Of a DNA stretch of 64,000 nucleotides, positions 18,795 to 44,907 are shown piece after piece. The DNA comes from Phycisphaerae bacterium (GTDB lineage: Bacteria > Planctomycetota > Phycisphaerae > UBA1845 > JAFGLZ01). Numbering within the stretch: the stretch's first letter is position 1; each line of letters starts with the position of its first letter. Where the stretch lies: NCBI GenBank assembly GCA_016927755.1, contig JAFGLZ010000262.1, positions 3,383 through 67,382 on the forward strand. Reading direction: 5' to 3'. The notes under the pieces are model-generated. The model ran no database searches and was not told the DNA's origin. It saw only the letters and a program-made list of their open reading frames with translations. The position numbers and the translations under genes were made by a program.

Positions 18795-20744
18795 CTAATC
18801 GGAGGGTGGCGGGACGTTTGAGGCGCCGGGGTCCGGGCCGGCGTATTCGGGAACGATCTCGGCGAGGCGGACGCGAATGGCCTTGGCATCGCCGCTGCAA
18901 GCCAGTTGAACGAGGTCCTCGATCGCCCGGCACACGGTGGCGTGGTCCTCGGCACGATGTCGCCAGATGCCGATCTTGGCGTGCGGGGTCGGGGCGACGT
19001 CCTCGCCGCGGATGTTGAGCTCCTCGAAGAGCTTCTCGCCGGGTCGGATGCCGGTATACCGGATCTCGATGTCCTCGTCGGGCCGGAGCCCGCTCAGCGT
19101 GATGAGTTCGCGGGCAAGATCGACGATCTTGACCGGTTCGCCCATGTCGAGCAAGAAGATCTCTCCTCCTCGACCGATGGCTCCGGCCTGGAGGGTTAGC
19201 TGGGTTGCCTCGGGGATGGTCATGAAGTAGCGGACCATGTCCGGGTGCGTAACGGTTACGGGACCGCCGGCAGCGATCTGGCGTTGGAAGACGGGGACGA
19301 CGCTCCCGCTGCTGCCGAGGACGTTTCCGAAGCGGACGGTGACGAATTGGGTGGGGCCGTCGGGGCTGAGCTGTTGGATATACATCTCGGCGACGCGCTT
19401 GGTGCATCCCATGACGCTGGACGGATTGACAGCCTTGTCTGTTGAGATCAGGACGAACTTCCGACAGCCATGGGCCAGGGCGGTGTCTGCAAGGTACTTT
19501 GTGCCCAAGATGTTGTTCTTGGCGGCCTCACCTGGATTCTCCTCCATGAGGGGGACGTGCTTGTGGGCGGCCGCGTGGAACACCACGTCGGGGGATTCCA
19601 CGTCGAAGATCTGGCGCAGCCTGGCTTCGTCGCAGACGTCGGCGATATACGCCTGGACGTCCGCATCGGGATGCGCTTCCCTCAGTTCGCGATCGACCTC
19701 AAAGAGGTTGTTCTCGGCCTGCTCGATGAGGACGAGCCGGCGCGGGGTGAACTTCAGGATCTGGCGGCACAGCTCGGAGCCGATCGACCCGCCGGCGCCG
19801 GTGACCAAGACCCGCTTGGATCGGATGTAGTGCTCGATGGTCTCGACGTCGAGCGCGACCTCCTCACGGCCGAGCAGGTCGCTGATTCGGACCTCTCGAA
19901 GCTGGCTGAGCGTCAAGTCGCCTCGAATCAACTCGTCCGGGCCTGGGACCATGCGGAAACGGACGGCGGCGCCCCGGCTGGCCTCGACGACCTTTCGGAG
20001 CTGTCTCTGGTCCGCCTCGGGAAGCGCGATGAGGACCTCATCCACGCCACGGGCCGCGCAGACCTCGCCCACCTGATCCGTCGTCCCCAACACGTCCACG
20101 CCGTGAATGCGCGCCCGTCGGAGGGCGGGGGCGTCGTCCAGGAATCCGACAACTCGATAGCGTTCCACGGGCATCCGCAGGATTTCCCGAAGGATCATTT
20201 CGCCGGCGTCGCCCGCGCCGACGATCAGGAGCTGGACGGGGCCGCCGGAGGCGACCGGTCTGAATTCCTCTCGGTAGAGGCGAACGGCGGCGCGAGCGCT
20301 GCAGACCAGTGCGATGGTCAGTCCCCAGTCAAGCACGAAGACAAGCTGAGGTCGTATTGGAACGTCCCTGGGTAGGACGTCCATGTAGTCGATGGCGAAG
20401 TAGAAGATCAGGAATGCGAGCCAACTCACGTAGCTGGCCCAGAACACGGAGACCAGATCTCGGAGTCCGACGTATCGCCACCACCCGCGATAGAGACGGA
20501 ACAGGCCGAAGACGGTCGCCTTGATCGCGATGTTGCAGGGCATCAGCGGGAGCAGATACCTGAGAAAGGCCGGTTCGCCGAAGTGGAAATTGTAGGCCAC
20601 GCCGTAGCTAAGAAGGTAGCTTGCGGTGAACAGGACCTGATAGATGAGAAACGAGAGGGCCAGCGGCTTGAAGGGGGGCCAGCGCCGCCGCCAGCCGCGA
20701 CGTCTGTGATCGGACAGGGCTTCCTCTCGAGTCGAATCGGTCAT
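18795..20744 (-). CDS. Membrane nucleoside-diphosphate-sugar 4,6-dehydratase (CapD/PglF/WbpM type)
   Basis: Four TM helices. Motifs: GAGDAG, DLLGR, VTGAGGSIGSEL, HAAAHKHVP, STDKAVNP, RFGNVLGSSGSV, MTIPEA, RPGEKL. Confidence 0.95.
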   Translation of the reverse strand: MTDSTREEALSDHRRRGWRRRWPPFKPLALSFLIYQVLFTASYLLSYGVAYNFHFGEPAFLRYLLPLMPCNIAIKATVFGLFRLYRGWWRYVGLRDLVSVFWASYVSWLAFLIFYFAIDYMDVLPRDVPIRPQLVFVLDWGLTIALVCSARAAVRLYREEFRPVASGGPVQLLIVGAGDAGEMILREILRMPVERYRVVGFLDDAPALRRARIHGVDVLGTTDQVGEVCAARGVDEVLIALPEADQRQLRKVVEASRGAAVRFRMVPGPDELIRGDLTLSQLREVRISDLLGREEVALDVETIEHYIRSKRVLVTGAGGSIGSELCRQILKFTPRRLVLIEQAENNLFEVDRELREAHPDADVQAYIADVCDEARLRQIFDVESPDVVFHAAAHKHVPLMEENPGEAAKNNILGTKYLADTALAHGCRKFVLISTDKAVNPSSVMGCTKRVAEMYIQQLSPDGPTQFVTVRFGNVLGSSGSVVPVFQRQIAAGGPVTVTHPDMVRYFMTIPEATQLTLQAGAIGRGGEIFLLDMGEPVKIVDLARELITLSGLRPDEDIEIRYTGIRPGEKLFEELNIRGEDVAPTPHAKIGIWRHRAEDHATVCRAIEDLVQLACSGDAKAIRVRLAEIVPEYAGPDPGASNVPPPSD

Positions 20745-28691: not shown

Positions 28692-29152
28692 GATTCTGCC
28701 TCGACACGAGCGCCTTCATCGGTGCCTACGAACGTCACTATCCACCCGACGTGTTCCCGACAGTGTGGGAGGAGATCGACCGTCTGATGTCCGACGGACG
28801 AATCGTCGCTCCCGAGGATGTGCTTCTCGAGATGAAGAAGAAGTCCGATGGCGTTGTGCAGCGTGTTGGCGCGCACAAGAACAGCTTCCTTCCGCTGGAC
28901 GAGAAGGTCCAGGAGTGCCTTCGTGGCATCATGAGCGACTTCCCGGAAGGATTCGTCGACCACCTGAGGAATCGCTCAGGCGCCGACGCAGTCGTCATTG
29001 CGCTCGCGCGGGCACACGGCGACGTCGTGGTCACTGAAGAGAAGCCCTCCGGCAAGGCCGGCAGGCCGAAGATCCCAGACGTATGTGTCCACTATGGGAT
29101 CGAGTGCTGCGGCCTGCTGGAAATGTTCCGGCGACTCAAGAGGGCTTTCTGA
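28688..29152 (+). CDS. PIN-like domain protein (DUF4411 type)
   Basis: Overlaps the upstream stop (ATGA). Motifs: LDTSAFI, YPPDVFP..W, AD..VIALA, VVTEE, KIPDVC. Confidence 0.88.
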   Translation: MRFCLDTSAFIGAYERHYPPDVFPTVWEEIDRLMSDGRIVAPEDVLLEMKKKSDGVVQRVGAHKNSFLPLDEKVQECLRGIMSDFPEGFVDHLRNRSGADAVVIALARAHGDVVVTEEKPSGKAGRPKIPDVCVHYGIECCGLLEMFRRLKRAF

Positions 29153-29319
29153 TGAGGGACGGCCCGCGCCAGGCTAGCGAGGCGTCACCTCCCCCGCTTG
29201 CCCCCCCTCGGCATCATGGATTACCCTGGCGGCACGTGGACGCACATCGAGAGGCGGGACGGCATCGCTCCGGCGGGTCGTGGATGAGCCGAGAGAGGTC
29301 GAGGCAGAAAGGTCATCTG

Positions 29320-30585
29320 ATGAGACGGTCGTTGATCGGCATCGCGCTGCTTTCGCTGGCGTCGGGGTGCTACAAGGAGACGACGCCGTGGGAGACGTTC
29401 GGCGCGGTCGGGCAGACGCCGCCTCCGTCGACGCAGAACGACCAGGCCGCCGACCTCAAGGCCCTCGTGGAGGGCAACACGGTCTTCGCGCTGAATCTCT
29501 ACGCCCAGCTCGCTCGGTCGGACGGGAACTTGTCGGTCTCTCCGCAGGGCGTCTCGCGAATTCTGGCCATGGCTTACGCGGGCGCGCACGGCAATACGGC
29601 CAAGGAGATCGCCAAGGTGGCTCACTTTGGCCTGCCCCCGGGGCGACTGCATCCGACGTTCGGGCGGCTGAGGTCCGAGCTGAAGGCGCTGGCGGGCAGG
29701 GGGGGCATGGAGCTGCGATACGCCGACGCGATCTGGATGCAGCGGGATCGGTCGTTCAAACCGGCGTTCCAGGAGTTGATCCAGAAGGACTACGACGCCA
29801 ACCTGAAGCGCGTGGACTTCCTGGGCGAGCACAAGGCGGTTCTCGCCGAGATCAACGCCTGGGTCGAGCAGCAGACGGGGGGAAGGATCAAGGGCTTTCT
29901 GGAAAAGGGCGACGTCGACGCCCTGACCTTGCTAGCGATCACCAACGCGATCTGCTTTCACGGTAAGTGGGCCAGGCCTTTTGACGCGCAGTGTACGCAG
30001 AACCTCGCGTTTCGGCTCTCGGCCAAGCAGGGCGCGACGGCCGCGACGATGAGCCAGTCGGGGACGTTCGGCTACATGGAGACGGGCAACCTGCAGGTGA
30101 TCGAGTTGCCCTACGCCGACGGGGAGCTGAGTATGCTCGTGCTGCTGCCCAAGAAGGCCGGGGACCTGCGGCGGGTCGAGGCGATGCTCACGCCGGCCAA
30201 CCTCAGCGCGTGGAGCGGGCGTCTGATCGAGACGAGTGCTCAGGTCTTCCTGCCCCGGTTCACCATCGGCGCCAAGTTCCGCCTTCACGACACGCTGAGC
30301 GACATGGGGATGTTCGACGCCTTCAACCTGAGCTCGGATTTCAGCGGCATCGACATCCGGCGGAAGCTGTACGTCAAGCAGTTCATGCACGCGGCGGAGG
30401 TGGCGGTCGACGAGGGCGGAAGCGCGCCCGCGGCCGAGCCGGCGGGGGAGGCTTCGGTCGTCTTCCGGGCGGATCATCCGTTCCTGTTTTTGATCCAGCA
30501 CAAACCCACGAAGGCGATTCTGTTCATGGGGCGCGTGATGAACCCGACGTCCGGGCCGGGGACCACGGCTCCCGGCGGCTCCTGA
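29320..30585 (+). CDS. Serpin-family lipoprotein, probably non-inhibitory
   Basis: Lipobox LASGC. Motifs: FALNLY, MAYAGA.G.T, INAWV..T.G.I, FRADHPFLFLI..ILFMGRV. Short, Pro-containing hinge DEGGSAPAAEP. Confidence 0.92.
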   Translation: MRRSLIGIALLSLASGCYKETTPWETFGAVGQTPPPSTQNDQAADLKALVEGNTVFALNLYAQLARSDGNLSVSPQGVSRILAMAYAGAHGNTAKEIAKVAHFGLPPGRLHPTFGRLRSELKALAGRGGMELRYADAIWMQRDRSFKPAFQELIQKDYDANLKRVDFLGEHKAVLAEINAWVEQQTGGRIKGFLEKGDVDALTLLAITNAICFHGKWARPFDAQCTQNLAFRLSAKQGATAATMSQSGTFGYMETGNLQVIELPYADGELSMLVLLPKKAGDLRRVEAMLTPANLSAWSGRLIETSAQVFLPRFTIGAKFRLHDTLSDMGMFDAFNLSSDFSGIDIRRKLYVKQFMHAAEVAVDEGGSAPAAEPAGEASVVFRADHPFLFLIQHKPTKAILFMGRVMNPTSGPGTTAPGGS

Positions 30586-41221: not shown

Positions 41222-42631
41222 ATGAATCACCCGGGCACGTTCATGACGACCATCGCGGCCGTTCTGACCTTGACGGTTAGCCTCTTCGGCGATGCCGTCA
41301 ACGAACGCCCGCTGGACGGTCCCTGGCCGCAGTACAACGCCAATCCCTTCGTGATCAAGACGGAACTCCCGCCTCCGCCGGACTCGGCGGGGGGAATCAT
41401 CGTGGACGACGTCAATGACGACGGGCTGATCGACTATCTCGTCAGCGTCCCCGGGCACGTGGCGGCCTATCAGCATGGCGGCGCCAAGCTCTGGCTGATC
41501 AAGACGGACATCCGGGTCGGCAACGCGTCGGAGCTTTACGGCCTGCCGGGTCACAACGGGCCCGGGCTGCAGGCCGGCGACTGCGACGGCGACGGGCACA
41601 CGGAGGTCCTCTTCCTCGCGCAGGACGGCAAGCTTCATATCCTCGAGGGCGTCACCGGCAAGGAGAAGACAGTCCTGGAGATGCCCCAGCCCTACAAGGA
41701 CGGCATGGCCTGGCAGCACGTCGTCCTGTGCAATCTCCGCGGCAAGGGCGTCCGTGACGTCCTCCTCCAGACGACGAACCGGGCGGGCTACAAGATGGGG
41801 CGGTACCTGGCCGCCTACGCGCTGGACGCGCCGACCAAGCCGCTCTGGCAGACGGACGGCTACCTCGGCTGCGCGCACACCGGCGCGCGGGTGGCCGATC
41901 TGAATGGCGACGGACTCGACGAGGTGCTTGGAGCGACCGTGCTTGCGCCGGACGGCAAGCTGCTCTTCCGGCTGCCGATGAAGGACGGCCACGTCGACAG
42001 CATCTTCGTCGGCCCGGTTCTTCCGGACGTCAAGACCCTTCAGATCGTCGGCCTGCAGGAAGGCGGCGCGGACGGCGGGAACCACGTCTATCTGTGGGAC
42101 CATCAGAAGATGTACTGGCAGGCGCACCACCAGCACATCGAGCCGCAGAACGCCGCGATCGGGCGGTTCGACCCGGGTCGGAAAGGGCTGCAGATCTGGT
42201 GCCGCTCGCGCTTCGACGAGCACCAGAAGCCTTTCGTCCTCGACGCCGAGGGCAAGCTCATCAGCCAGTACGAGATGGACAAGGTCGCCCCCCAGGGCTG
42301 GACGACCAAGGGCGTCGAGGTGATCTACACGATCGATTGGACCGGGGAGCCGAAGCAGCTCGCCGCGGCCAAGGCCCGCCACGCCTCCGGCGACGTCTGC
42401 GTCTTCGACGCCGTCAGCGGCGCGTTCGTCCACGTCATCAAGACCAAGGCCGATCGCCTTTACGTCGCCGACGTCGCCGGAGATTGGCGCGAGGAGATCG
42501 TGATTCTCGCCGGCAACGAGCTGCACATCCACCATAACCCCGCCCCGAACCCCCAGCCCAACCTGCCGAGGCTGTGGCACCAGCAGTGGTACCGACGGAG
42601 CAAGATGACGCACAATTACTACTGCCCGTGA
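41222..42631 (+). CDS. Secreted FG-GAP-type beta-propeller protein (rhamnogalacturonan lyase PL11 C-terminal-like)
   Basis: Ca-binding motifs DVNDDG..D, DCDGDG.TE, DLNGDG.DE; also GHVDS and ADVAGDWREEI. Confidence 0.7.
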   Translation: MNHPGTFMTTIAAVLTLTVSLFGDAVNERPLDGPWPQYNANPFVIKTELPPPPDSAGGIIVDDVNDDGLIDYLVSVPGHVAAYQHGGAKLWLIKTDIRVGNASELYGLPGHNGPGLQAGDCDGDGHTEVLFLAQDGKLHILEGVTGKEKTVLEMPQPYKDGMAWQHVVLCNLRGKGVRDVLLQTTNRAGYKMGRYLAAYALDAPTKPLWQTDGYLGCAHTGARVADLNGDGLDEVLGATVLAPDGKLLFRLPMKDGHVDSIFVGPVLPDVKTLQIVGLQEGGADGGNHVYLWDHQKMYWQAHHQHIEPQNAAIGRFDPGRKGLQIWCRSRFDEHQKPFVLDAEGKLISQYEMDKVAPQGWTTKGVEVIYTIDWTGEPKQLAAAKARHASGDVCVFDAVSGAFVHVIKTKADRLYVADVAGDWREEIVILAGNELHIHHNPAPNPQPNLPRLWHQQWYRRSKMTHNYYCP

Positions 42632-42834
42632 CCCACGCCGTCTCCCTAGCCTACCACGAAAGAAGAACAAATCTGTTACATTGAAACTAGTATAACATAC
42701 GGCAGGACAGAGGGGCCTCACACAACTACTTATAGTAGAGGTACTTATACGCCTCAAGTCTTGGTGTTACCTATCATTCGGGGGGGCAGATGCCAATATT
42801 CAGTAGACTTTTCCTTGACCTTTGGTTTCTTGGC

Positions 42835-42863
42835 TTGCAGCAACTCCGCCTTCGTCCTATAAT
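42835..42863 (+). promoter_or_regulatory. Sigma70-like promoter
   Basis: TTGCAG-N17-TATAAT, 28 nt before GTG 42892, with a GGAGGA RBS. Confidence 0.65.
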
Positions 42864-42891
42864 CTGGGAGACGGAGTTTGGAGGATCCCCC

Positions 42892-43440
42892 GTGGAAGAC
42901 AAGGAACTTGACGCGATGGCTGCTATTACTCGTGCTCTTGGTCAGTTTGGCGAGGGCGAGTCCGACATAGTCCAACGCATCCTTCGCTGGGCCTGCGAGC
43001 GATATAGGCTTGAGTCAACTTCGGCCAGTCGTCCGGTGTCAAAATTGCATGAAGCAGACGAAGCTTTGCCCGAATACAGCTCCTCAGCTTCCAGCTCAGA
43101 GCATGGTTTTGAGGACCTTCCCGACCTCTACCACAGGATGGACCCAAGGACAGATCCAGATCGTGCACTCACGGTCGCCTACTGGTGCCAAGTTGTTGAG
43201 GGGGGCGGGACGTTCACGGGGAGAGAGGTCAACTCGAAGCTCAATGACTTGGGCCACCGGCTAGCGAACATCACTGATGCGCTCAACTCGCTGATGCGTA
43301 GGAAGCCGCAATTGGTTATCCAAGCCGCTAGGATGGGGCCTAGCAAACAATCGCACAAGAGGTATAAGCTCACTGCGGCGGGAGTGAGAGAGGCGCAATC
43401 CCGCCTAACTCATCTGGACATCTCTGAGGATGCCAATTGA
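42892..43440 (+). CDS. Hypothetical protein with predicted C-terminal winged-helix DNA-binding domain
   Basis: GTG start with RBS; N-terminal helical pair and linker, then AYW..TFTGREVN..L..LGH...NIT.AL..L and RYKLTAAG, a wing motif. Codon usage is less GC3-biased than in neighbouring genes. Confidence 0.7.
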   Translation: MEDKELDAMAAITRALGQFGEGESDIVQRILRWACERYRLESTSASRPVSKLHEADEALPEYSSSASSSEHGFEDLPDLYHRMDPRTDPDRALTVAYWCQVVEGGGTFTGREVNSKLNDLGHRLANITDALNSLMRRKPQLVIQAARMGPSKQSHKRYKLTAAGVREAQSRLTHLDISEDAN

Positions 43441-43526
43441 CTGCCGCAACAGTTGATTTCCCAGATTCGAGGCGCGGGTGAAGTGGAGAAGAACGAGCGA
43501 TCAACGACGAAGGAATCATGAGGCAC

Positions 43527-43562
43527 AAAAAACACCCCTGGCGATGGAGTCGTCCAGGGGTG
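43527..43562 (-). terminator. Intrinsic terminator (minus strand)
   Basis: Perfect CACCCCTGG/CCAGGGGTG stem, with A6 at 43527-43532 (U6 on the minus strand). Confidence 0.7.
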
Positions 43563-43590
43563 CCGGGCGCTAGCCCTGATGAATCTATGC
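43527..43590 (-). ncRNA. Candidate ~65-nt antisense small RNA
   Basis: Bounded by a minus-strand TTGACT-N17-GATAAT promoter and a 9-bp-stem/U6 intrinsic terminator. Confidence 0.55.
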
Positions 43591-43596
43591 AAATTC

Positions 43597-43625
43597 ATTA
43601 TCGGCATGGCCGTCCGGAAAGTCAA
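43597..43625 (-). promoter_or_regulatory. Sigma70-like promoter (minus strand)
   Basis: Reverse complement reads TTGACT-ttccggacggccatgcc(17)-GATAAT. Confidence 0.65.
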
Positions 43626-43649
43626 CGACTCCTTTTGGAGGATCGACCC

Positions 43650-43790
43650 ATGAAAAGGTCGAATCGACAAAGGCCGGCACCGCCCGGCCGCCGGAAGGTC
43701 TTCTGCCGATCGTTTGTCCACTACTTGACAGGGAAGCGCGTCTACCCCCGCCGGGGGAAGGCGTTCTGCTTCCACGTTCGGCACCGTTGA
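43650..43790 (+). CDS. 46-aa basic small protein
   Basis: GGAGG RBS 8 nt upstream; MKRSNRQRPAPPGRRKVFCRSFVHYLTGKRVYPRRGKAFCFHVRHR; followed directly by a terminator. Confidence 0.65.
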   Translation: MKRSNRQRPAPPGRRKVFCRSFVHYLTGKRVYPRRGKAFCFHVRHR

Positions 43791-43801
43791 CCTCCGCTGC
43801 A

Positions 43802-43837
43802 GGCTGGCTCCCCGGATTCGGGGGGCCAGCCCCTTTT
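43802..43837 (+). terminator. Intrinsic terminator
   Basis: 13-bp stem GGCTGGCTCCCCG/CGGGGGGCCAGCC followed by CCTTTT; lies between convergent genes. Confidence 0.7.
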
Positions 43838-43863
43838 CCCGATTCATGGAGATGGATGGTGTT

Positions 43864-44907
43864 TCACACCTGCTCGAACTTGCACACCTGGTCGTAAAGC
43901 TTCCCGTTTAGCCGCTTGGCGATTTCCGTATCCTTCAGCAGGGCGATCTTGAGGACGTCGCACGTGAACACGATGTGGTAGTTGCTCTCGATCGACCGTC
44001 CCATGCCTTCGAGGATGATCAGGTCGGCGTCGCGGGCGGCGTCGTTGCACGCGTCGCTGATGTCGCTCAGGTCGATCAGCGGCGCGCCACATCCGCTGGC
44101 GACCGTGGCGATGCGGTCTTCGGCCAGAAGGTTCGCCAGGACGGCATCGAGGCCCTTCAGGCGATCGAGCACGTCGTTCAGCTCGGGGAACGTGATGTCG
44201 TTCAGCGACGGCGTGGAGTTCGCCGCTAGGACGACCCGAGCGCCCCGGCGGGCCAGGTGCCGGGCCAGGGGGATGCAGCCGAGGATCAGGTCGGACCCGG
44301 CGTTGTCGACGAAGAAGAGCACATGACGGTAGGTCGGCTTGTTGAGCAGTCTGTCGGACAGTGTGTCGAAGTCGTCTACGAACCAGGGGCGGCGAGGTTG
44401 ACGCTCGCGGGTCGCGTGGAAGTCCATGCCCTCGGCGTGGTAGTTCTCGATGGTCGCCATTGACCCGAGGTCGAAGATGTTGCCCGCGAAGACGCCGCGA
44501 ATCAGGGCCTCGATGAGCCCCGGACCGTCCAGGGCGTCCAGCTCGGCGAGCACGTCGGGGTACAGCCCGATCGCCGCGTGGTTCTCGGCCTGCTTGACCT
44601 GCGCGTAGGGGTCGTCGATGCCGTGCTTGCGGAGGAGCCGCTCGCGACAGCGGTCGAAGCTGAGCACGGTCAGCGGTCCCCAGTAGGCCGGGTCGGAGCG
44701 AAGGAAGTCGAGCTCCGACAGCAGCTCCTGGCGGAAGGCCTTGATCGGCGCCTCGTCCAGTCCCTGCTTGCGGGCCAGGGCGAGCATCGTCTCGGTGTGG
44801 TGCGTGAAGTGCCCGATCCAGTAGTCGCGTCCGACCGGATCGGCCAGCAGGTCCCAGTCCGAGACCACGTACGCCTGGGGATCGGCCAACTTGCACAGAA
44901 CGGCCAT
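43864..44907 (-). CDS. Damage-control metal-dependent phosphatase, DUF89/ARMT1 family (PANK4 C-terminal-like)
   Basis: Motifs: DPY..VK..EN, AGNIFDLG, RPWFVDD, FVDNAG.D..LG, LNDIT, EGMGRSIESN. Confidence 0.9.
   Translation of the reverse strand: MAVLCKLADPQAYVVSDWDLLADPVGRDYWIGHFTHHTETMLALARKQGLDEAPIKAFRQELLSELDFLRSDPAYWGPLTVLSFDRCRERLLRKHGIDDPYAQVKQAENHAAIGLYPDVLAELDALDGPGLIEALIRGVFAGNIFDLGSMATIENYHAEGMDFHATRERQPRRPWFVDDFDTLSDRLLNKPTYRHVLFFVDNAGSDLILGCIPLARHLARRGARVVLAANSTPSLNDITFPELNDVLDRLKGLDAVLANLLAEDRIATVASGCGAPLIDLSDISDACNDAARDADLIILEGMGRSIESNYHIVFTCDVLKIALLKDTEIAKRLNGKLYDQVCKFEQV

Follow-up and report, generated by a model that had tools for sequence, protein, structure and literature searches.

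A very basic 46-residue protein gene and a predicted cis-antisense RNA in a Phycisphaerae genome: a candidate mobile module resembling type I toxin-antitoxin systems

A 64,000-nucleotide stretch of a Phycisphaerae bacterium genome (GenBank assembly GCA_016927755.1, contig JAFGLZ010000262.1, positions 3,383 to 67,382; hereafter the window, with positions counted from its first letter) carries a small plus-strand gene of 46 codons at 43650 to 43790, which encodes a very basic protein of a conserved, unnamed family. As predicted from sequence signals alone, the best reading of the DNA upstream of this gene is that its opposite strand specifies a short cis-antisense RNA, the conserved partner of the 46-amino-acid (aa) gene. 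Weighing the evidence laid out below, we consider it rather probable that the stretch is a single instance of a two-gene module, compact and horizontally mobile, resembling toxin-antitoxin (TA) systems of type I, in which the antisense RNA would repress the gene through its 5′ untranslated region (UTR). Each of five sequence features listed in a first-pass annotation of this DNA (the open reading frame [ORF], hairpins, an 8-mer pair, an opposite-strand promoter, and a terminator) was found where it had been placed, and the system proposed there, an undescribed, putatively antisense-RNA-controlled peptide that is type I TA-like and unlike the hydrophobic toxins, survives as the best reading.

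Comparative evidence identifies ORF 43650 to 43790 as a real, conserved gene. Its ATG lies at 43650 and its TGA at 43788 to 43790, with a Shine-Dalgarno (SD) sequence, GGAGG (43637 to 43641, plus strand), 8 nt 5′ of the ATG and a plus-strand intrinsic terminator (43802 to 43839) consisting of a 13- to 14-bp stem (43802 to 43831) followed by CCTTTTCC. Family relatives also have a strong SD, at −8 to −14, and a hairpin at the end of the gene. An exhaustive HMMER search of 1.84 billion representatives returned 18 matches at an E value of ≤0.001, and 16 of these were true relatives of 42 to 124 aa (E of 2e-7 to 5e-4, 42 to 63% identity, core of about 40 residues); the other two (P0013 and P0020) are repeat proteins and were dropped as spurious. 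With further members added, the family exceeds 30, and its length, start, SD, and terminator are conserved, in keeping with the earlier proposal that this ORF, with its ribosome-binding site and terminator, is a genuine gene. Family size is 37 to 49 aa by the start codons assigned in this analysis, some database entries having longer predicted N-termini. Amino acid identity is maintained at about 50% across loci ranging from 31 to 67% GC, and the short motifs conserved in the alignments include PAPPGYRW, close to the N-terminus, and TGKRVYPK, in the middle of the protein.

Members of the family are scattered. When 400 other genomes from this phylum were searched with a family profile, 7 matched, 6 clearly and 1 (L078) doubtfully; a sample of 400 genomes from the phylum to which a Sneathiella (alphaproteobacterial) genome belongs yielded one genome with a member. 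Others are found on a Tistrella mobilis megaplasmid, on a Pseudomonas putida conjugative plasmid, and on five IMG/VR viral contigs, and six of eight metagenome loci returned were usable. Two candidate loci were dropped as Arg-rich frames (L087 and L088), and another was unusable because it is cut by a contig end (L086). Among 23 aligned members, 12 matched phrog_30400 (best E of 6.9e-7) and 5 matched phrog_33859; the window protein itself matched phrog_30400 over residues 17 to 44 (E of 3.6e-4, 21.5 bits), a weak match to a short profile. No match to two family members was found by tblastn in 50,697 phage records, and a word-indexed protein search returned no relative of the 46-aa peptide, its relatives surfacing only in the exhaustive HMMER search. 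The gene has no paralogue in its own genome, and the DNA of 43441 to 43863 had no match in 20 related genomes. The P. putida copy (NZ_CP047312.1, 3980 to 4108 of locus L090) has no annotation in RefSeq; it is located some 60 nt upstream of what is annotated as a CBASS cGAMP-activated phospholipase gene, with a mer operon and a Tn3 transposase nearby.

These data bear on the idea that the ORF is no gene at all, being instead a chance frame or the decayed remnant of a gene for an approximately 250-aa protein that elsewhere accompanies relatives of the upstream gene (see below). Several facts fit this idea: the ORF lies in a low-GC island, its GC content at third codon positions (GC3) is 0.78, below the 0.90 of the host, 40 related genomes gave only noise (E above 0.01), and a tblastn match that reads past the stop codon joins residues 38 to 76 of the partner protein from locus L037 to 43719 to 43835 (E of 0.006, database of 521 nt). 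However, a chance frame or remnant does not account for a family of this size with conserved length and signals, and we give the idea almost no credence; the remnant version was dropped once the small-protein family appeared.

The second element of the proposed module is a sigma-70-like promoter on the minus strand (43597 to 43625), with a −35 box, TTGACT, at 43625 to 43620, a 17-nt spacer, and a −10 box, GATAAT, at 43602 to 43597. It matches the consensus at 10 of 12 positions, recurs in relatives, and was the only promoter-like site in a scan of both strands of 42600 to 44200, for which shuffled sequences averaged 0.4 sites. The 300 nt upstream of 15 family loci were then scanned on both strands with our own script, using strict and relaxed criteria based on consensus matches. 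Under the strict criteria, 5 of 15 loci had an opposite-strand promoter, with its −35 box 22 to 33 nt before the start codon. Under the relaxed criteria (at least 8 of 12 consensus matches, A2 and T6 present, and the −35 box 20 to 45 nt before the start codon), and with L084 left out as a near-duplicate of L085, an antisense promoter was present in 13 of 14 independent loci, its −35 box at −23 to −41. By comparison, 1,000 rounds of shuffled leaders gave a mean of 0.93 of 14 loci and a maximum of 4, and the binomial tail calculated from the in-locus background rate was 8e-14. Control starts rarely had such a promoter: 5 of 29 in the family of the upstream 182-aa gene, and 0 of 67 for window ORFs of at least 200 aa. 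Among loci fetched later, for which the search interval was fixed beforehand, four of six had the promoter, namely, L091 (−28), L092 (−22, with 10 of 12 matches), L094 (−44), and L095 (−28, if the start is 2992). Thus, as a predicted element, the opposite-strand promoter is conserved at a fixed place upstream of the gene.

Transcription from this promoter would yield a small RNA of about 64 nt (43527 to 43590, minus strand), its 5′ end placed near 43590 from the position of the −10 box and its 3′ end formed by the hairpin at 43561 to 43533 and a T6 tract at 43532 to 43527. On the plus strand, the same GC-rich element is a 9-bp stem-loop (43533 to 43561) whose loop holds GGAGTCGT; it is preceded by A6 and not followed by a T run. 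The A6 tract 5′ of the stem is T6 on the minus strand, making the hairpin a predicted terminator for that strand only. The fold of the predicted minus-strand RNA has an energy of −35.1 kcal/mol (z of −4.72). Of the 15 family loci, 10 had an antisense-oriented terminator under the strict criteria, placed at about −115 to −190 and bidirectional in two cases. All candidate RNAs have a terminal hairpin (−20 to −35 kcal/mol) located 60 to 130 nt past the −10 box, mostly with a T-rich tail. The predicted promoter and terminator that the first-pass annotation took to define a short RNA therefore recur at the same place in other phyla, on plasmids, and on viral contigs.

Folding energies point to the same strand. 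Over a fixed segment from −180 to −55, the antisense strand folds better in 16 of 19 loci, by a mean of −6.5 kcal/mol (Wilcoxon p of 2.7e-4). Terminal hairpins contain 28 G-U pairs in the antisense orientation versus 7 in the sense orientation, a count that leans toward antisense because the hairpins were picked on that strand. For L084 and L085, the first 94 nt of the RNA are 96% identical, and the terminal hairpin has been rebuilt with compensatory changes; RNAalifold predicted 19 pairs for four related RNAs, 7 with a compensatory change, from those four sequences only. No Rfam family came near threshold at the position of the RNA in the window, and the best Rfam scores in 10 loci were 27.9 bits for sar RNA (threshold, 43) and 23.5 bits for anti-hemB (threshold, 49.5). 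An RNA motif scan of the viral contigs gave 0 matches. The only sequence element recurring besides the promoter is a CTGCAA or TTGCAG hexaloop, which is frequent in the terminal hairpin (sense in L074, L075, L089, and L090; antisense in L083).

Could the 46-aa gene be an ordinary small gene, the T6 hairpin serving only to end read-through from the convergent ARMT1-like gene downstream, and the promoter match being due to chance? The hairpin that follows the ARMT1-like gene has no minus-strand T run, and a transcript from that gene could continue to 43527; moreover, given the average of 0.4 in shuffles, a single promoter-like match in 1.6 kb is by itself nothing rare. However, the promoter and the hairpin are found again, at unchanged distances, amid quite different neighbours, and the folding strand bias points to antisense, leaving this explanation quite improbable.

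The leader between 43441 and 43670 has some capacity to hide the SD. The anti-SD/SD hairpin CTCC-TTTT-GGAG (43629 to 43640, plus strand) is weak, with 4 bp, and a start-codon hairpin, TCGACC/GGTCGA, lies at 43643 to 43662. Folding of the whole leader (43441 to 43670) gave a z of −2.83, and the local fold of 43600 to 43670 is ordinary (z of −0.83, with 32 of 200 shuffles as stable). The sequestration of the SD claimed in the first-pass annotation is thus borne out in part. Pairing of the SD with an upstream partner reaches a probability of ≥0.95 in 6 of 14 loci, and in 8 of 14, the window included, SD pairing falls in the top 10% of the locus's own shuffles; in the window, the SD is paired with a probability of 0.91, of which 0.68 is with an upstream partner. 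Leaders cannot be aligned among loci, except for L084/L085 and two short blocks common to L080 and L089. Such sequence divergence is expected of a cis-antisense regulator and not of an RNA recognised by the protein.

A more elaborate scheme, proposed from the window sequence by analogy with IncI/IncB repZ, is an activator-loop or pseudoknot switch in which the loop GGAGUCGU pairs with ACGACUCC and frees the SD, the antisense RNA covering the loop. The match on which it was built is genuine, GGAGTCGT (43546 to 43553) being the exact reverse complement of ACGACTCC (43625 to 43632), and the predicted antisense RNA does cover the loop. Scored as hairpin apex against the last 50 nt of the leader, complementarity in the window is 7 to 8 nt, and a match of 7 nt is attained by only 2.4% of control segments from that leader, a figure that is suggestive, although the 8-mer match was picked after inspection. 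Elsewhere the pairing is not conserved: in all 14 other loci, loop/anti-SD complementarity is 3 to 5 nt, the chance level, with control fractions of 0.11 to 1.0, and none exceeds that range. In addition, in the minimum-energy fold of 43441 to 43670, most of the loop is taken up by an extended stem and about 3 nt stay unpaired, and the competing 4-bp SD hairpin offers little to free. The leader translation suggested from an ATG at 43518 is likewise not supported, as alignments with relatives extend no further back than residue 1 of the 46-aa form, the leader ORF is unconserved, and the GC3 of 43518 to 43649 is noncoding in character (0.43 versus 0.78 for the ORF). The loop/anti-SD match is either particular to the window copy or due to chance, and a switch of this kind is improbable as the regulatory principle.

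The geometry of the locus suggests another form of antisense repression. Counting back from the ATG, the −35 box is 25 nt upstream, the antisense promoter spans about −25 to −53, and the SD is at −13, leaving no room for a sense promoter before the SD; the mRNA must therefore start upstream and overlap the antisense RNA. Sense promoter-like sites occur just past the antisense terminator, clustered at −197 to −243, in 7 of 19 independent loci, which is suggestive only. In the window, the mRNA would probably arise by read-through from the promoter of the upstream 182-aa gene. If both RNAs are made, the antisense RNA would be perfectly complementary to leader positions of about −60 to −123, and when abundant, it would form a duplex with the leader, leading to cleavage or decay, or to blocked ribosome loading. 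The local anti-SD hairpin could act as a second brake. The protein, when overmade, would be harmful to the cell, most plausibly through nucleic acid binding.

Features of the protein itself leave room for more than one role. It is Arg/Lys-rich and has no long uncharged stretch, and hence is not of the hydrophobic, membrane-inserting type that is typical of, though not universal among, type I toxins. An AlphaFold2 model made with the 23-sequence alignment as input has a mean pLDDT of 81 and consists of a small beta-sheet. Nothing informative was found with this model by Foldseek against the PDB (best E of 3.9) or by a wide VIA-align search (a single row, Z of 2.0, root mean square deviation of 3.4 over 36 residues), and a PDB profile search gave only short lectin and VP40 pieces at an E of 0.01 or worse. 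An ESM Atlas search returned hypothetical clusters (0.84 to 0.86). Such blank fold searches are not evidence for a new fold. No family for the 46-aa protein was found in Pfam, NCBIfam, or PADLOC, consistent with the first-pass description of a basic, nonhydrophobic product lying outside curated families, and none of the families in Pfam, NCBIfam, or Rfam covers the protein or the RNA part. A literature search, which did not extend to supplements or the original ptaRNA1 paper, returned no description of this protein family or its RNA.

Calling the product a toxin is guesswork based on module logic and extreme basicity. Alternatively, RNA and mini-protein could be partners without toxicity, the protein being a nucleic acid-binding regulator or accessory factor of a mobile element whose dose is set by the antisense RNA, or the two together forming a small ribonucleoprotein. 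Antisense dose-tuning has precedents in sar/ant of phage P22 and in plasmid CopA/RepA. A soluble, very basic, beta-stranded protein, with members on plasmids and viral contigs and matches to two PHROGs of unknown function, would suit such a role. However, no conserved neighbour is available to be regulated, the pair moves as a self-contained unit, as is typical of addiction and defence modules, and the conservation of protein but not RNA sequence argues against the specific protein-RNA recognition of a ribonucleoprotein. We regard this alternative as unlikely, while rating it above the switch described earlier. The distribution is self-contained, patchy, and tied to mobile elements, as would suit a module for addiction or defence.

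Several observations count against an antisense-repressed, type I TA-like module and temper our confidence in it. First, both the antisense RNA and the mRNA are known here from their sequence signals only. Second, the interval of −45 to −20 and the relaxed promoter criteria were fixed after the first 15 loci had been viewed; one of the 14 independent loci (L077) is an exception, with its element at −62, and one control gene set, the starts of the 182-aa family, reached 17%. The validation set was small (six loci), the result for L095 hinges on the choice of start codon, and neither L093 (31% GC) nor L096 has an antisense promoter by the same criteria. Third, the body of the window RNA is slightly more stable as sense than as antisense (−26.0 versus −23.9 kcal/mol); as the two window strands fold about equally, the argument from strand bias rests on the relatives. 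Fourth, the 300 nt upstream contained no sense promoter-like site in the window, nor did they in roughly half of the loci, so that the overlap of mRNA and small RNA is deduced from geometry. Finally, most type I toxins have a transmembrane stretch, which this protein lacks, and fold searches with it gave no informative match. A stronger version of the module hypothesis, in which these loci make up a new cross-phylum type I TA family with a soluble, basic, beta-stranded toxin that acts on nucleic acid or the ribosome, is silenced by cis-antisense RNA, and is carried by plasmids and phages as an addiction or anti-phage module, is possible, but we would lean against it.

In the window, the module lies in a low-GC island (47 to 57% over about 42650 to 43850 versus 65% for the window) of a genome with 65% GC, flanked by a host FG-GAP/rhamnogalacturonan-lyase-like gene and the convergent ARMT1-like phosphatase gene (43864 to 44907, minus strand), and a Pfam survey of 28 window ORFs found ordinary chromosomal genes. 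Also in the island is the upstream gene (42892 to 43440, plus strand), which has a promoter-like TTGCAG-17-TATAAT at 42835 to 42863 and encodes a 182-aa protein with a winged-helix-like C-terminus. Its unnamed family occurs in 35 genomes of many phyla (loci L037 to L071), and in at least 10 loci a gene for a protein of about 250 aa follows directly, a partner that is missing from the window. This partner has a winged-helix-like C-terminus (weak Rio2_N matches) and a conserved R-N-x-R-x-x-x-H stretch, which by eye looks HEPN-like. Neither protein has a family in Pfam, NCBIfam, or PADLOC. The 182-aa gene was considered as a conserved partner of the 46-aa gene and rejected, its profile matching only 1 of 58 neighbouring ORFs (a convergent one in L077), and no viral contig with its family was found. 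An identical 11-mer, TTTGGAGGATC, forms the SD context of both the 182-aa gene (42877 to 42887) and the 46-aa gene (43634 to 43644); by a rough estimate, an 11-mer repeat within 1.5 kb is not rare by chance. A 14-nt direct repeat with one mismatch (42776 to 42789 and 43816 to 43829, 1,040 bp apart) brackets the 182-aa gene and the module, its second copy lying inside the terminator of the 46-aa gene; the repeats may be island ends or chance.

Neighbours differ at every small-protein locus and include IS1595 and IS200-like transposases, a DNA methylase/ParB, a conjugative plasmid, and a CBASS gene. The sole recurring neighbour is a DUF5343-like protein, encoded upstream on the same strand in L074 (384 to 1331) and L082 (192 to 971), with matches below threshold (E of about 5e-5, 24 bits, cutoff of 27). 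Elsewhere in the window, ARAGORN called a tRNA-Gly(GCC) at 18970 to 19063 that, at 94 nt, is long for this tRNA and could be an odd call or contain an insertion, and two serpin genes lie within 30 kb of each other (13 to 1005 and 29083 to 30582).

What these predicted loci bring together is a familiar antisense logic and a new, non-membrane protein family with an unusually wide spread. Known type I TA families are almost all small membrane peptides with narrow distributions, and a module of the proposed kind, if confirmed, would broaden the chemistry of RNA-controlled toxin modules as well as their host range. Annotators would also gain a missing gene pair, as the unannotated P. putida plasmid copy illustrates. 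Even if the protein is nontoxic, the family would offer a clean natural case of a regulatory layout conserved without sequence conservation.

Of the known antisense systems, those that control plasmid replication share the layout of the predicted RNA. The Inc RNA of IncIα/IncB repZ and CopA/CopT of R1 are built on a 60- to 90-nt antisense RNA that comes from the leader and complements a stem-loop located upstream of the ribosome-binding site, and here, too, a putative antisense RNA would arise within the leader, directed against such a stem-loop. The present loci differ in that the controlled gene is no replication initiator and the loci are no replicon control regions, no rep gene having been found among the neighbours scanned; in contrast to IncI/IncB repZ, a leader peptide and pseudoknot pairing are not conserved. 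The two PHROGs match the present family in sequence, with no function or RNA partner recorded for either.

Among type I systems, XCV2162/ptaRNA1 is a computational, plasmid-borne candidate whose erratic distribution suggests horizontal transfer, and XCV2162 has a predicted membrane domain, according to the passages on this pair in PMC5367252. Plasmid carriage and erratic distribution are shared with the family described here, and the membrane domain of XCV2162 is not; Rfam, which is said to include ptaRNA1, gave no ptaRNA1 match in the window or in 10 loci. SymE/SymR and RalR/RalA set a precedent for non-membrane type I toxins that act on nucleic acid, RalR being a DNase. SymR overlaps the start region of symE, whereas the predicted window RNA lies at least 47 nt upstream of the SD. 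No relation to SymE or RalR was found by Pfam, NCBIfam, or PDB profile searches, which were blank or returned noise. A table in PMC5367252 lists SymE as a ribonuclease with cis regulation, found in 5 phyla.

The closest likeness is to type I systems in which the RNA acts on a long 5′ UTR, such as zorO/orzO, tisB/istR-1, ldr/rdl, and aapA/isoA of Helicobacter pylori. In the last three, the toxin mRNA has a long 5′ UTR, and this is where the antitoxin RNA pairs. OrzO pairs with the 174-nt zorO 5′ UTR, and the full-length UTR itself hinders translation, according to the part of PMC5397157 that treats this pair. Like these systems, the module proposed here has a gene of fewer than 60 codons with a long structured leader, a predicted opposite-strand short RNA with its own promoter and terminator, an SD that may be held in local structure, and a self-contained organization with patchy distribution. 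Unlike them, its product is highly basic, beta-stranded, and soluble, with no transmembrane helix. In their passages on distribution, one source confines every type I family but SymE to a single phylum (PMC5367252), and another states that type I TA systems had been known only from Proteobacteria, Firmicutes, and Tenericutes (PMC12390103). Compared with families of such narrow range, the family described here extends over at least two phyla, as well as plasmids and viral contigs.

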